A DNA stretch of 64,000 nt from Myxococcota bacterium (GTDB lineage: Bacteria > Myxococcota_A > UBA9160 > UBA6930). Under the pieces are notes generated by a model that did no database searches, had not been told where the DNA came from, and saw only the letters and a list, made by a program, of their open reading frames with translations. The stretch lies in contig OZ245002.1 in assembly GCA_965223415.1 (NCBI GenBank), positions 1,312,001-1,376,000 of the forward strand, given 5' to 3'. Below, piece after piece: positions 6,989-10,654 of this stretch (position 1 is the first letter of the stretch; each line of letters starts with the position of its first letter). Position numbers and translations under genes: made by a program.

Positions 6989-7891
6989 ATGGCCGAAGCA
7001 AAGACGACCCCCCAGCTGCGCGACGTGACCGAGAGCGGGAGTGAGTTCGCCCTCAGCGAGGACGAGCTCCGAACCGTCACCGGAGGCCGGGCCTTCCTCG
7101 ACCTCCTGGACCAGAAGCGCTTCTCCACGAAAAAGCTGCAGTCGACGTTGAACTACGAGCGGGAGCTCCGCAAGCTCCAGATCGAGATGGTCCAGCTCCA
7201 GCGGACCGTCCAGCTCACCGGCCGCCGTGTCGCGCTCATCTTCGAGGGGCGCGACGCTGCGGGCAAGGGCGGAACCATCCGGCGCTTCGTCGAGCACCTG
7301 AACCCGCGGACCGCGCGGGTCGTGGCGCTCCCGAAGCCCACGGAGGTGGAGCAGGGACAATGGTACTTCCAGCGCTACGTCTCCGCGCTGCCCAACCCCG
7401 GTGAGATCTGCTTCTTCGACCGCTCCTGGTACAACCGCGCCGTCGTCGAGCCGGTGATGAACTTCTGCTCCGAGGAGCAGTACAAGCAGTTCATGCAGCA
7501 AGTCCCGGAGTTCGAGCACATGCTCTACGAGGACGGTGTCGAGCTGATCAAGTTCTGGTTCTCGATCTCGAAGCGCGAGCAGAAGGAACGCTTCGATTCG
7601 CGCCGCGGCGACCCCCTGAAGCAGTGGAAGATCAGCCCGGTGGACGAGCGCGCCCAGGAGCACTGGGACCTGTACACGAAGTACAAGGAAGCCATGTTCA
7701 GCCGGACCCACACGACCTACAGCCCGTGGATCATCGTGCGCGCGAACTCGAAGAAGAAGGCTCGCCTGGAGAGCATGCGCTACGTGCTGAACAACGTCGA
7801 CTACGACCATCGGGACAAGGCCGGAACCTCCCTCCACCCCGATCCGGACATCGTGAAGCGGTTCCACCGAGCGACGTCTCAGATCGACTAG
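6989..7891 (+). CDS. ppk2: Polyphosphate kinase 2
   Basis: FEGRDAAGKGG, WYFQRY, FDRSWYNRA. SD AGGAGG upstream. Confidence 0.95.
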   Translation: MAEAKTTPQLRDVTESGSEFALSEDELRTVTGGRAFLDLLDQKRFSTKKLQSTLNYERELRKLQIEMVQLQRTVQLTGRRVALIFEGRDAAGKGGTIRRFVEHLNPRTARVVALPKPTEVEQGQWYFQRYVSALPNPGEICFFDRSWYNRAVVEPVMNFCSEEQYKQFMQQVPEFEHMLYEDGVELIKFWFSISKREQKERFDSRRGDPLKQWKISPVDERAQEHWDLYTKYKEAMFSRTHTTYSPWIIVRANSKKKARLESMRYVLNNVDYDHRDKAGTSLHPDPDIVKRFHRATSQID

Positions 7892-7915
7892 CGGGCTGCC
7901 ACCGGGTGGGCCGGC

Positions 7916-9151
7916 TCATCGCCGGGGCCGCGTCCCCCGCCGCCTCCTCCGCGCCGCCAGCTCGAGCCGCAAGCTCTTCGCGATGAACCGGGGCAGCCCG
8001 AGGGGGTTCCGGCGGAGCTTGCGGAGGATCAACCGGCGCATGTGGGGCATCGCGTCGTAGCTTCCCTCGCGCTGGCCGTGGCCGATGTGCATGGCGAGGG
8101 CGGGCACGTCGACGACGTCCATGGGAAGCTCCAGGTGGAGCGTCTCGGTCTTCGGCAGCAGACAGGTCTGTTCGTCGCAGGCCTGGTAGCGGACGTTCAC
8201 CTCGAGGCGCGCGGTCTCCGCGTCGAGGGGACGGAGCTCGCTGGCGAGCTCACCGGTCGGGTAGAAGGGCACGGCAATGTCCACGGTGCCGCTCCAGACT
8301 TGGAGCTCCAGGTCCATGCTCGCAAGGCACAGGGGCTCGGTGGGCGGAAGGATCGGGTCGAGCACCGTCAGGCCCGGGGGTCCCTCGACCTGCACCGTCG
8401 TCGGCACCATGCCCTCGGGCACGGGCTCGCCGTAGAGGTGGAGCCCCGGGCCCAGCTCGAAGCGGACGACGAGCTTGCGCATGATGCCCTGGCGGATGCT
8501 GCCGTCCCCGCCGTGGACCGCTGCGGTGACGTGGATCTGGTCGTCGCCAGCTTCCGCTCGGGGCGCCGCATCGGACAGCTCGATCCGGCCCAGGGCGGCG
8601 TCGATCAGCGTCTCCGGGCTGTCCCGCTTCTTGTAGGTGTCGTGGAAGAACTTCGCGACGACGATGCCGTCCTCGTCGGTGACGAAGACGCCGGGGAAGG
8701 CCACGCCGTACAAGAAGGCGTCGTCCTCGCCGACGGAGGTGTTCAGCACGCCGTAGCGCCGGATCACCTCCGACTCGACGTCCGATAGCAGCGGGAAGGA
8801 GACGTCCCGCTTCAGGGCAAACTCCCGCAGTGCGGGCTGGTCGTCGTAGGAGATGGCGTAGAGCTTGATGCCGGCCGCCTCGAACTTCTCGCGGGCGTCG
8901 CGCAGCTCGCCGAGCTGCGTCCAGCAGGGGGGTCACCAGACGGCGGAGCGGTAGAAGACCAGGGCGGCCTTCGAGCGGCCGCGGTCGGCGTGGAAGTCGA
9001 TCTCGCGACCGAAGGCGTCGGGAAGGCTGAAGTCCGGCAGCCGTTCGCCCACCTCGGGGCCCGTGACGTGGCCCTCGGGCAGACCGCTTCGGGCGGGGTG
9101 GCCCAGCGGTGCCGGTGCGTCGAAGCCGTGCTCGTCGCGCTCGACCGTCAT
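7916..9151 (-). CDS. Putative selenoprotein: AhpC/TSA redoxin domain (UxxC, Sec73) fused to DsbD N-terminal-like domain, 411 aa
   Basis: Track ORFs 8933-9328 and 7916-8767 are one frame joined through TGA 8933-8935: VFYRSAVW-U-PPCWTQLGEL...YAISYD...FPLLSD. C-terminal YQACDEQTCLLP. ATG overlaps the upstream stop (ATGA). Confidence 0.88.
8901..8919 (-). promoter_or_regulatory. Putative bacterial SECIS hairpin
   Basis: CGCAGCTC-GGC-GAGCTGCG perfect 8-bp stem starting 13 nt after the in-frame UGA, with G in the loop. Confidence 0.7.
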
Positions 9152-9924
9152 ACAGGAGATCTCTCGTGTCGGCGGGTGATCAGCTTGCGAGGGTGGCGAC
9201 CGTCCACGTAGCCGACGAAAGTGCCCGCGACGAGCTCGTAGCCCACCAGGGCCTGGATGCGCTCCGAGTAGCGGGCCGCGACGTCCGGCGGCACGGCCAG
9301 GAACTGGTTCTCGAGCTGGCGCAGCCACGGCTGGCAGTACTGGACCGTCAGCCCCAGGCGCTTGCCGCTCGAGCGGTTCGCGCCCGAGCGGTGATACAGC
9401 GTGCCCGGGAAGACCGCGACGCTCCCGGACGCCATCAACAGGGGGACGCCCATGCGTTCCATCTCCGCCTGGGGCGGGGCCGGCGTCTCCCAGAGATGAC
9501 TCCCGGGAATGACGTCCGTTGCGCCGTTCTCGGCGGTGAAGTCATCGAGGGCCCAGATGGTCGAAACCCCCTGCACCGGACGGGGCGGCGGGGGCGCGCC
9601 GAGCGCGTCGTCCTGGTGGAAGCCCTGGGGCGTCTCGCCTGGGTGCAGGTTCACCACCAGGGCCGCCGAGAGCAGGAAGCTCTCGCGGAGGAAGCGGCCG
9701 ACGAGCTCGAGGACGGCCGCGTGCTCGACCAGCGGCGCGACCGCGGGCACCTTGGCCAACAAACTGTAGACGCGCTCGGTCCTGAAACCCTCGAAGTCGT
9801 TGCGCCCCATCAGCTCGGACCGGAGGTACGGCCCGAGCTGCTCGCGGAGCGCCGCGACCTGGGAGGGGTCGATGGCGGAGGGGAGGACGACGTAGCCGTC
9901 GGTTTCGAGACTCGGAGAGGCCAC
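9148..9924 (-). CDS. Phytanoyl-CoA dioxygenase (PhyH) family protein
   Basis: HQDD, WALDDFTAENGATDVIPGSH, YHRSGAN, PWLRQLEN. Confidence 0.9.
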   Translation of the reverse strand: MASPSLETDGYVVLPSAIDPSQVAALREQLGPYLRSELMGRNDFEGFRTERVYSLLAKVPAVAPLVEHAAVLELVGRFLRESFLLSAALVVNLHPGETPQGFHQDDALGAPPPPRPVQGVSTIWALDDFTAENGATDVIPGSHLWETPAPPQAEMERMGVPLLMASGSVAVFPGTLYHRSGANRSSGKRLGLTVQYCQPWLRQLENQFLAVPPDVAARYSERIQALVGYELVAGTFVGYVDGRHPRKLITRRHERSPV

Positions 9925-9930
9925 ACCTCT

Positions 9931-9940
9931 ACGGTATCCT
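9931..9940. promoter_or_regulatory. Overlapping bidirectional -10 boxes (TACCGT minus, TATCCT plus)
   Basis: Each hexamer lies 6 nt from the start codon of a divergent gene (9924 and 9947) in a 22-bp intergenic gap. Confidence 0.6.
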
Positions 9941-9946
9941 GCCGCC

Positions 9947-10654
9947 ATGGCCGACGCCCCCACCCTCTACACCGCGCGAGCCTGCAACTTCTGCCACCGC
10001 AGCCGGATCGCCTTCGCCGCCAAGGGTGTCGAGCCGGAGCTCGTCGAGATCGATCTCGTGAAGCGCCCCTCCTGGTTCCGCGACAAGGCCTCGGGCGGCA
10101 GCGTGCCGCTGCTCGAGTGCAAGGACGGCGCCTTCCACGGCTCGGCCATCATCAACGAGTACGTCGAGGAGCGCTGGCCCGAGCCGACGCTGCTGCCGGG
10201 CTCGCCGGCGGAGCGCGCCGAGGCGCGCATGTGGATCCACTGGTGGAACCGCGCGCCGACGCCCCGCTACGAAGAGCTGCTGATGAACGTGCGGCCGAAG
10301 CGGGAAGACGAGCTGCGCGAGCGGCTGCTCTCGGCTCTCGTGGAGTGCGAGGAACGGCTGGTGGCGCGGGGCTACGGCGGCGGCTACTGGCATGGTGCGT
10401 CGCTGGGCCTGGTCGACGCCAGCGCCGCGCCGGTCTTCGATCGCTTCGTCGGGCTGCGGCACTTCCACGACGTTGACGTTCCGGAGGAGCTGGGCCGCGT
10501 GCGCGCCTGGCGGGACCACCTGCTCGCGGACGAAGTCGTGCAGCGGTGCTCGCCGGGAGAGGACGCACTGCTCGAGGTCTTCTCGGGCTACCGGGACGTC
10601 CTGGCCAAGGCGGCGGAGGCGGGCATCGAGGTCCCGGTGTCGGGCGGTGACTGA
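9947..10654 (+). CDS. Glutathione S-transferase family protein with N-terminal CxxC
   Basis: CNFCHRSR, SVPLL, SAIINEYVEERWP. Confidence 0.88.
   Translation: MADAPTLYTARACNFCHRSRIAFAAKGVEPELVEIDLVKRPSWFRDKASGGSVPLLECKDGAFHGSAIINEYVEERWPEPTLLPGSPAERAEARMWIHWWNRAPTPRYEELLMNVRPKREDELRERLLSALVECEERLVARGYGGGYWHGASLGLVDASAAPVFDRFVGLRHFHDVDVPEELGRVRAWRDHLLADEVVQRCSPGEDALLEVFSGYRDVLAKAAEAGIEVPVSGGD

Follow-up and report, generated by a model that had tools for sequence, protein, structure and literature searches.

A 64,000-nucleotide (nt) stretch of the Myxococcota assembly GCA_965223415.1 (contig OZ245002.1, positions 1,312,001 to 1,376,000; henceforth the window) carries on its minus strand a gene for a predicted selenoprotein, in which a redoxin domain with a selenocysteine (Sec, U) is followed by a domain of the DsbD-alpha type. 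Translated with TGA as U, positions 9151..7919 form a single frame of 411 codons closed by a terminal TGA stop (7918..7916); the only internal TGA is codon 73, within the residues V-F-Y-R-S-A-V-W-U-P-P-C-W-T-Q-L-G-E-L. Translation table 11 splits the same frame into two open reading frames (ORFs), of 131 (8933..9328) and 283 residues (7916..8767). For this locus the public protein collection holds nothing but the 283-residue piece (P0002); a separately called fragment of 72 residues (P0246) also stands in public data. The best 120 of 639 database relatives all begin downstream of the UGA, with lengths of 283-334 residues, so that these public records are deprived of their active site; their names are only 'redoxin domain-containing' or 'hypothetical', and no NCBIfam model reaches its cut-off on the 411-residue product. 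A preliminary description, made from the letters of the window, had already joined the two apparent ORFs into one frame interrupted by a single TGA and had foreseen that gene callers would return two fragments; the translation, the orthologous loci described below and the public 283-residue record are all in agreement with it.

Scanning one genome per species gave 77 loci, 72 of which cover the TGA site; the five loci left unscored comprise one without the N-terminal part (L093), a couple truncated where their contigs stop (L098, L107) and two true DsbD genes (L108, L109). At the site of U73 a TGA is present in 72/72 loci and TGC or TGT in none (63 loci were scored by pattern and nine by eye), the context being [SG]-[AVT]-x-W-U-P-P-C. 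Likewise, a search of 41 related genomes gave 13 matches with E <= 1e-99 in 11 genomes, each of the 13 with one in-frame TGA. The 72 residues ahead of the TGA are conserved among orthologues (consensus M-T-[IV]-E-R-D-x-x-G-F-D-A-P-A-P-L-G-H-P) and lie in frame with the downstream part; in 72/72 loci the orthologue is one continuous frame that includes this TGA, not a pair of separate genes. Beyond the orthologues, an exhaustive search of cluster representatives yielded full-length relatives 26-44% identical; in the 25 that were fetched, the U73 position is occupied by Cys in 21, by Ser in three and by Trp in one, and the earlier placement of the TGA at the first Cys of a thioredoxin-fold W-U-P-P-C motif is thereby upheld.

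The genome, a single contig of 5.83 Mb, encodes the whole machinery: selA (497 bits) and selD (253 bits) exceed their curated cut-offs, as does selB (267 bits, with a second match in the same frame to the C-terminal end of the model), and there is one copy of tRNA-Sec (selC, 69.4 bits), identified by ARAGORN as tRNA-SeC with anticodon TCA. That the TGA might be an error for TGC, a doubt raised at the outset, is countered by contigs of three public runs from two samples, which agree with letters 8933..8935, in one case at a depth of about 186; two of the runs (X1 and X2) come from one sample, possibly the source of the assembly. On this comparative evidence, UGA codon 73 is almost certainly read as selenocysteine.

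A genome-wide recoding of TGA was considered and ruled out, because TGA remains the ordinary stop of the adjacent PhyH gene and of the selenoprotein gene itself. As a side observation, the Logan contigs of all runs examined break or fork within positions 8928-8959 of the window (the U-P-P-C-W-T-Q and hairpin region), and short contigs of other organisms match this segment with 0-4 differences; the segment behaves as a repeat in metagenome assembly graphs because it is strongly conserved between species.

The UGA is followed by a hairpin, CGCAGCUC-GGC-GAGCUGCG (window 8919..8901), whose perfect 8-bp stem starts 13 nt after it. Folded alone the hairpin reaches -12.5 kcal/mol (z -3.09, with 0/200 shuffles as good), yet contexts of 44-76 nt in this G+C-rich DNA give ordinary fold energies (z +0.71 and -0.02), and it is therefore conservation, not energy, that provides evidence for it. 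In 70 sequences (of 73, two with N and one duplicate being left out) the stem holds standard pairs in 95.2% of the cells, a proportion that falls to 20-48% when the partner strand is slid by 1-3 columns. One stem pair (36-46) is GC in 52 sequences, GU in 10, AU in five and AC in three, with five compensatory changes from G-C to A-U, and in 12 sequences the closing pair does not form, so that the loop grows to 5 nt.

Codon usage makes the stronger case: synonymous sites were counted in 53 full-length genes (20 loci being set aside for unusual starts, frameshifts, N's or strong divergence). The codons of T78 and E82 are ACG and GAG in 53/53 genes (third-position entropy 0.00), and those of Q79, L80, L83 and R84 have third-position entropies of 0.45-0.58, as opposed to 1.1-1.96 for other conserved four- and sixfold codons of the same genes, 0.95-1.0 for their other Glu codons and 1.6 for the two Pro codons that separate the UGA from the stem. 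Since synonymous change is suppressed in the stem codons, the RNA is under selection beyond that on the peptide. The distance from the UGA to the apical loop is 21 nt and the loop starts with GG (GGY or GKB across sequences), a geometry that agrees with the numerical limits usually given for the bacterial model of the selenocysteine insertion sequence (SECIS; bSECISearch). The perfect hairpin had been put forward from the window as a SECIS inside the ORF, and pairing and frozen synonymous sites both speak for that proposal. An Rfam scan of positions 8700..9100 at E <= 10 returned two chance miRNA matches and no SECIS family, while RNAalifold, run on an 81-column alignment, favoured another, weak lower helix (-5.78 kcal/mol).

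A full-length structure model was computed from an alignment of 63 rows spanning Sec and Cys forms (A1, with the TGA read as Cys); its mean predicted local distance difference test score (pLDDT) is 95.0 and its predicted TM score (pTM) 0.92. The first domain matches Pfam AhpC-TSA (residues 34-166, E 2.7e-28) and has the peroxiredoxin fold, its closest structural matches being AhpE (5id2_A, Z 16.9, root-mean-square deviation (rmsd) 2.2 A over 152 residues) and BcpB (5epf_A, Z 16.7), with weaker likeness to ResA (2f9s_A, Z 12.8) and CcmG (Z 9.3); Foldseek against the PDB returned peroxiredoxins only. The best PDB match by sequence is the BCP 2cx3 (E 1.5e-21), and in the profile alignment to it U73 takes the place of the peroxiredoxin Ser/Thr and C76 that of the peroxidatic Cys, whereas the peroxiredoxin Pro is replaced by S69 and the catalytic Arg by the nearly invariant P153. 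Because the active-site Pro, Thr/Ser and Arg are thus replaced, the fold is peroxiredoxin-like but the catalytic signature (P-x-x-x-T/S-x-x-C plus Arg) is absent. Cys76 is invariant in the 63 rows, Arg68 is an extra invariant residue, and besides the W-U-P-P-C itself a nearly invariant P153-G154 lies at the strand where the cis-Pro loop of TlpA, ResA and CcmG is expected. The centre reads as W-C-x-x-C, the thiol:disulfide-oxidoreductase type, with Sec in first place, an assignment made from aligned residues.

Departures from this pattern are found among the remote homologues. P0135, a metagenome protein of 616 residues, bears the whole two-domain module as a tandem duplicate, its complete copy having W-S-S-Y-C; elsewhere the U73 position is Ser in P0192 and P0255 and Trp in P0170. 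With Ser or Trp at that position, these four proteins are limited to the cysteine equivalent to C76.

The second domain matches Pfam DsbD_N (PF11412) over residues 225-340 (E 1.7e-8; 34.9 bits, the cut-off being 25). A structural search independent of Foldseek, the only one in which a DsbD-alpha match emerged, aligned it with ScsB-alpha (6c29_A, Z 12.0, rmsd 2.6 A over 126 residues) and with DsbD-alpha (1jpe_A, Z 10.6, rmsd 2.6 A over 109 residues; 2k0r, Z 10.2). It has the immunoglobulin (Ig)-like fold of DsbD_N, with the active cysteine pair in a beta-hairpin: the pair is C325..C330 of the segment CDEQTC, and C325, C330, Q323 and P333 are invariant across the Sec and Cys forms of the 63 rows. 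The two true DsbD loci L108 and L109 share the identical string YQACDEQTCLPP. The DsbD N-terminal-like half seen in the preliminary description is hence real by both Pfam and fold; the protein is no DsbD/ScsB membrane transporter, as it stops at residue 411 and has no Pfam match to the beta or gamma domains.

Past residue 345 the Sec forms possess an extension that is absent from the 19 Cys-type rows of the alignment. In it, the nearly invariant H-x-G-H-G-Q-R-E (355-362) is followed by a short strand and by two helices (368-381 and 385-406), and the last 45 residues of the product contain 15 Arg and 2 Lys, in line with the very basic tail reported earlier. When residues 197-411 are folded alone, pTM drops from 0.92 to 0.72 and the pLDDT of residues 347-366 from 88-90 to 66-68, the helices staying at 85-92; since it is the omission of the redoxin domain that lowers these scores, the H-x-G-H-G-Q-R-E segment may lean on that domain, as far as such indirect evidence from models goes. 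In five loci of Rhodospirillaceae type (L052, L060, L063, L085, L099) the gene ends about 20-25 residues early (354-421 codons in mechanical calls); these keep H-x-G-H-G-Q-R-E and the first basic helix and are without the second.

At the other end of the protein, Kyte-Doolittle means over 12 residues peak at -0.03 within the first 45 residues, where 15 exported homologues reach 1.99-3.16, which sustains the earlier remark that the product has no signal peptide and appears cytoplasmic. Being conserved and modelled with pLDDT > 90, the N-terminal extension belongs to the mature protein. No membrane segment was found anywhere in the protein (highest 19-residue Kyte-Doolittle mean 1.13), and having neither signal peptide nor anchor the product differs in location from the extracytoplasmic TlpA, ResA and CcmG. 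A soluble, cytoplasmic protein of about 45 kDa is the explanation that best suits these hydropathy data. The features of the gene are collected in Table 1.

Table 1. Features of the selenoprotein gene, in window coordinates
Feature	Position	Strand	Basis
Whole selenoprotein gene	7916..9151	-	Translation with TGA=U; orthologues 404-418 codons, U at codon 73-75 in most loci
UGA codon 73 (U73), first position of the U-P-P-C centre, predicted Sec	8933..8935	-	TGA in 72/72 covering loci
Cys76, second residue of the U-x-x-C centre	8924..8926	-	Invariant in 63-row alignment A1; alignment to BCP 2cx3
SECIS-type hairpin, 8-bp stem, GGC loop, 13 nt after UGA	8901..8919	-	Fold, pairing, synonymous sites
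Polar N-terminal extension, residues 1-28, not a signal peptide	9068..9151	-	Orthologue conservation; pLDDT 90-94; hydropathy -0.03
Peroxiredoxin-fold redoxin domain, residues 29-191	8579..9067	-	Pfam AhpC-TSA; structural matches
DsbD-alpha/ScsB-alpha-type immunoglobulin-like domain, residues 195-345	8117..8569	-	Pfam DsbD_N; structural matches
Cys325-D-E-Q-T-Cys330 pair (Y-Q-A-C-x4-C-x-x-P)	8162..8179	-	C325, C330, Q323, P333 invariant in 63 rows
H-x-G-H-G-Q-R-E motif, residues 355-362, start of the Sec-clade-specific C-terminal extension	8066..8089	-	Nearly invariant in alignment A3
Two basic amphipathic helices, residues 368-381 and 385-406	7934..8050	-	DSSP on model, pLDDT 94-96
ATGA overlap of selenoprotein start and upstream PhyH stop (PhyH 9148..9963, -)	9148..9151	-	Sequence; Pfam PhyH

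The ORF upstream of the selenoprotein gene is a PhyH (Pfam E 1.4e-28), and a PPK2 gene (6989..7891, +) is convergent with the selenoprotein gene, 24 nt separating the two stop codons (window 7889-7918). The PhyH, PPK2, glutathione S-transferase (GST) and acyl-CoA synthetase of the window were searched for around 74 loci of the genome scan (L033-L106) and were all rejected as conserved partners: PhyH has only a distant, non-adjacent match (L104/L105), PPK2 is present at one locus, GST at two and acyl-CoA synthetase at three. None of the four occurs at the orthologue loci of the related genomes (L022-L031) or at the weak-match locus L032. The preliminary description had the selenoprotein gene translationally coupled to PhyH; the ATGA overlap is real, but the link is incidental, the adjacency being private to this genome among the loci searched.

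GST-like genes of various kinds, one of which lies in the window at 9947..10654 (+), offer a lead as recurrent neighbours, judging from gene order. They occur within 2.5 kb in 15/72 loci, about 3/72 being expected by chance from the background of this one genome (36 GST_N_3 matches per 5.83 Mb), roughly a fivefold excess; Pfam GST domains were found in 12/12 neighbours scanned, 10 of them from the 15 loci. At L038, L043, L047, L048, L058 and L088 the GST-like gene immediately precedes the selenoprotein gene in the same orientation, the gaps being -4 to 116 nt. At L040 (L040:3001-5175), in a Halieaceae metagenome-assembled genome (MAG), the orthologue frame runs for 725 codons without a stop and continues, after a spacer of 27 codons, into a YghU-type glutathione-dependent disulfide-bond oxidoreductase (NF008731, 482.7 bits, cut-off 325).

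How such a protein might work can be approached from its two centres. On balance, and without great assurance, I lean towards a cytoplasmic two-centre selenoprotein reductase, its UGA decoded by way of the hairpin and its Sec centre recycled by the DsbD-alpha-type dithiol. The genome's own SelA, SelB, SelD and tRNA-Sec would decode codon 73 under the direction of the in-frame hairpin 13 nt downstream. The U73 selenolate would then attack an oxidised substrate (a disulfide, a sulfenic acid or a peroxide), C76 would resolve the adduct into a selenenylsulfide, the C325/C330 pair of the fused domain would reduce the latter, and this pair would in turn be reset by a cytoplasmic reductant, either thioredoxin or, given the neighbours, a system of the glutathione/GST type. 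In the periplasm, DsbD-alpha and ScsB-alpha are known to reduce CcmG, TlpA or an envelope peroxiredoxin (abstract of PMC3322552), couples that the proposed cycle mirrors; the contact of the two centres, the direction of the electrons, the substrate and the reductant of a Sec/Cys relay are what I infer.

A number of observations weigh against this reductase. The covariation of the hairpin is thin, being confined to one pair, and the peptide it encodes, T-Q-L-G-E-L-R, is conserved in itself. By structure, the redoxin domain resembles peroxiredoxins (Z 16-17) more than it does ResA or CcmG (Z 9-13), and the Ser (three) or Trp (one) found at the U73 position in remote homologues that keep C76 fits a C76-centred, peroxiredoxin-like mechanism better than a CxxC exchange. 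The high pTM indicates a confident placement of the domains and is no proof that U73/C76 and C325/C330 touch. As for the neighbourhood, no conserved operon partner emerged when 931 mechanical neighbour ORFs were clustered all against all, the commonest family being present in 11/72 loci; the GST types differ between loci and their enrichment was counted over related, non-independent genomes against the background of a single one; and the YghU-type 'fusion' of L040 is a single case, possibly due to a lost stop or an assembly error.

Other explanations share part of this evidence. The wiring could be the opposite, the Sec redoxin taking up cytoplasmic electrons and the DsbD-alpha-like domain serving as an output that reduces client proteins. 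DsbD-alpha and ScsB-alpha are promiscuous donors to several thioredoxin-fold partners (abstract of PMC3322552), the pair C325/C330 is invariant, and in the relatives of known structure, 6c29 and 1jpe, modules of the Ig-like type are the more exposed ones; nevertheless the flow usually described, in part in the abstract of PMC3322552, runs from the alpha domain to a partner of the TlpA, CcmG or peroxiredoxin type, Sec usually sits where the substrate is met, and homologues with Ser or Trp at position 73 are incapable of CxxC donation, which makes this arrangement somewhat unlikely. A selenium peroxidase, in which U73 (or C76) would reduce hydroperoxides in the manner of GPx or Prx while the second domain and the tail recycle or position the enzyme, agrees with the top structural matches (AhpE, Z 16.9; BcpB, Z 16.7), with the alignment of C76 to the peroxidatic Cys and with the likeness of remote S-x-x-C homologues to the peroxiredoxin T/S-x-x-C, and the basic amphipathic helices could, from their composition, bind acidic lipids and so hold the enzyme, for instance, at a membrane surface. 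The replacement of the peroxiredoxin Pro and Arg by S69 and P153 renders it unlikely, and it overlaps with the reductase towards which I lean, which leaves the substrate open.

The second domain might, on the other hand, be inert, an Ig-like binding or scaffold module with structural cysteines beside a Sec redoxin that works alone. Ig-like folds are common as binding modules and the contact of the two centres is a proposal; yet the cysteines of Y-Q-A-C-x4-C-x-x-P are invariant across Sec and Cys, exported and non-exported forms, the string equals that of true DsbD, and a structural disulfide would hardly last in the cytoplasm, so that such a role is very unlikely. It is harder still to believe that the gene encodes no selenoprotein at all, being a nonsense pseudogene, two genes, a sequencing error or a case of UGA read as another residue. 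Table 11 does give two ORFs and public gene calls are truncated; against this, the TGA is kept in 72/72 loci with no TGC or TGT and with both sides conserved as one frame, contigs from two samples agree (one at depth ~186), the sel genes are present and TGA is an ordinary stop in the same operon.

The proposed reductase may be set beside several known systems. The AhpE/BCP peroxiredoxins (5id2, 5epf, 2cx3) are its best fold matches (Z 14.3-16.9), from which it differs in that S69, U73 and P153 replace Pro, Thr and Arg, and in the addition of Arg68 and of a second redox domain. The hybrid Prx5-glutaredoxin of Haemophilus influenzae (1nm3) likewise joins a peroxiredoxin-fold domain (Z 12.9 for the Prx part) to a reducing partner, the fused glutaredoxin recycling the Prx; there, however, the reductant is a glutaredoxin and not of DsbD-alpha type, and selenocysteine is missing. 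Exported Cys-type fusions of AhpC-TSA and DsbD_N (P0160, P0162, P0174) have the same domain order and are 26-32% identical over both domains, with W-C-P-Y-C and Y-Q-A-C-D-D-K-x-C-Y-L-P centres, but they carry signal peptides (hydropathy 1.99-3.16), Cys in place of Sec and no C-terminal extension. With DsbD-alpha (1jpe) and ScsB-alpha (6c29) the second domain shares the fold and a cysteine pair in the same Y-Q-x-C...C-x-x-P hairpin. Its Cys spacing is C-x4-C, whereas in E. coli DsbD-alpha it is C-x5-C. Unlike DsbD and ScsB, the selenoprotein has neither signal peptide nor membrane-spanning beta domain nor gamma domain, and the alpha-type domain is here cytoplasmic and fused downstream of its presumed partner; the natural partners of DsbD-alpha and ScsB-alpha are thioredoxin-fold proteins of the TlpA, CcmG and peroxiredoxin kind (abstract of PMC3322552).

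The family is not new as a selenoprotein. The Global Ocean Sampling (GOS) paper (Zhang & Gladyshev 2008, PMC2398784) lists in its Table 2 'Prx-like 1, pfam00578, UxxC' with 225 Sec and 2,740 Cys sequences, and the table of predicted selenoproteins of a review (PMC13188914) has a 'Prx-like thiol:disulfide oxidoreductase, PF00578, UxxC'. In Dataset S1 of the former, searched by motif and headers, ten sequences with SAVWUPPCWTQ stand under '#Prx-like 1', and one of them (JCVI_READ_1947008) extends into the second domain; the family was thus already catalogued in 2008. The present product, with its pfam00578 domain and U-x-x-C, belongs to 'Prx-like 1', although that class, as published, mixes many unrelated Prx-like proteins, whereas the orthologue group is Sec-only as sampled, and although the fusions described in PMC2398784 (those of Figure S1 included, as its text names them) involve other domains. 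The locus is thus an unannotated member of a family already listed as selenoprotein, and the 'hidden' selenoprotein of the preliminary description was hidden from annotation only.

As regards the fusion, the main texts of PMC2398784, deep-Sep (PMC12013277) and BSepDB (PMC13326102) make no mention of DsbD, and PMC13188914 mentions it once, for an unrelated rhodanese/DsbD fusion. No literature joining PF11412, DsbD_N or nDsbD with selenocysteine was found in a search that mostly left out subscription journals, which leaves its absence unproven. As far as searched, then, the fused DsbD-alpha-type domain and the basic extension of the Sec clade are undescribed in print. The selenoprotein unites two modules that are known from other proteins as distinct partners in the periplasm; should the relay be true, it would be a compact instance of a fused DsbD-alpha-type dithiol recycling a selenol centre in the cytoplasm, and would offer a way to ask why Sec persists here when close Cys forms are absent. 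On the practical side, hundreds of marine gene calls would be put right by a family model able to read the UGA.

In a quick maximum-likelihood tree built from the 63 aligned sequences and rooted by midpoint only, the 44 Sec forms fall together on one side of a branch (SH-aLRT 93), as sister to three Cys forms that are likewise without signal peptide; together (support 99) they are set off from the exported Cys forms by a branch of 1.29. A single switch between Cys and Sec would suffice to account for this topology, its direction being left unset because of the midpoint root. In every genome sampled the orthologue group is Sec-only, and it extends over Myxococcota, Gamma- and Alphaproteobacteria and Acidimicrobiia. 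Since Myxococcota, Gamma- and Alphaproteobacteria are intermixed within the Sec clade, the tree points to gene transfer between marine lineages; the Spirochaetaceae, Bacteroidia and Gemmatimonadota labels of some MAGs may be binning errors.

One may go further and regard the Sec forms as a distinct cytoplasmic machine, that is, a periplasm-type couple of DsbD-alpha and redoxin moved inside, with one switch from Cys to Sec and a new C-terminal module, which would lean on the selenol site, hold the protein to the inner face of the membrane and draw on glutathione through partners of GST/YghU type. Taken as a whole this is quite unlikely; if true, it would give bacteria a counterpart of GPx4, the membrane-lipid hydroperoxide reductase, and account for the strict retention of Sec in marine aerobes of several phyla.

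Degenerate or second copies also occur in the family. L093 lacks its first ~79 codons and has unrelated low-G+C sequence upstream, L083, L102 and L103 have frameshifts or early stops, and L083 is the second copy in the Halieaceae MAG that carries L040. Lastly, the genome under study holds, on the minus strand, three more single-domain Prx-like genes with an in-frame TGA at the same place: L110 (G000:C1:2980163-2981233), with F-Y-R-G-D-W-U-P-F-C, and L111 (C1:4270506-4271609) and L112 (C1:1621066-1622139), with F-R-G-H-W-U-P-Y-C and F-R-A-H-W-U-P-Y-C, both of which resemble other 'Prx-like 1' sequences of the GOS set. With these in-frame TGA codons, the genome probably encodes several selenoproteins of the Prx-like class.

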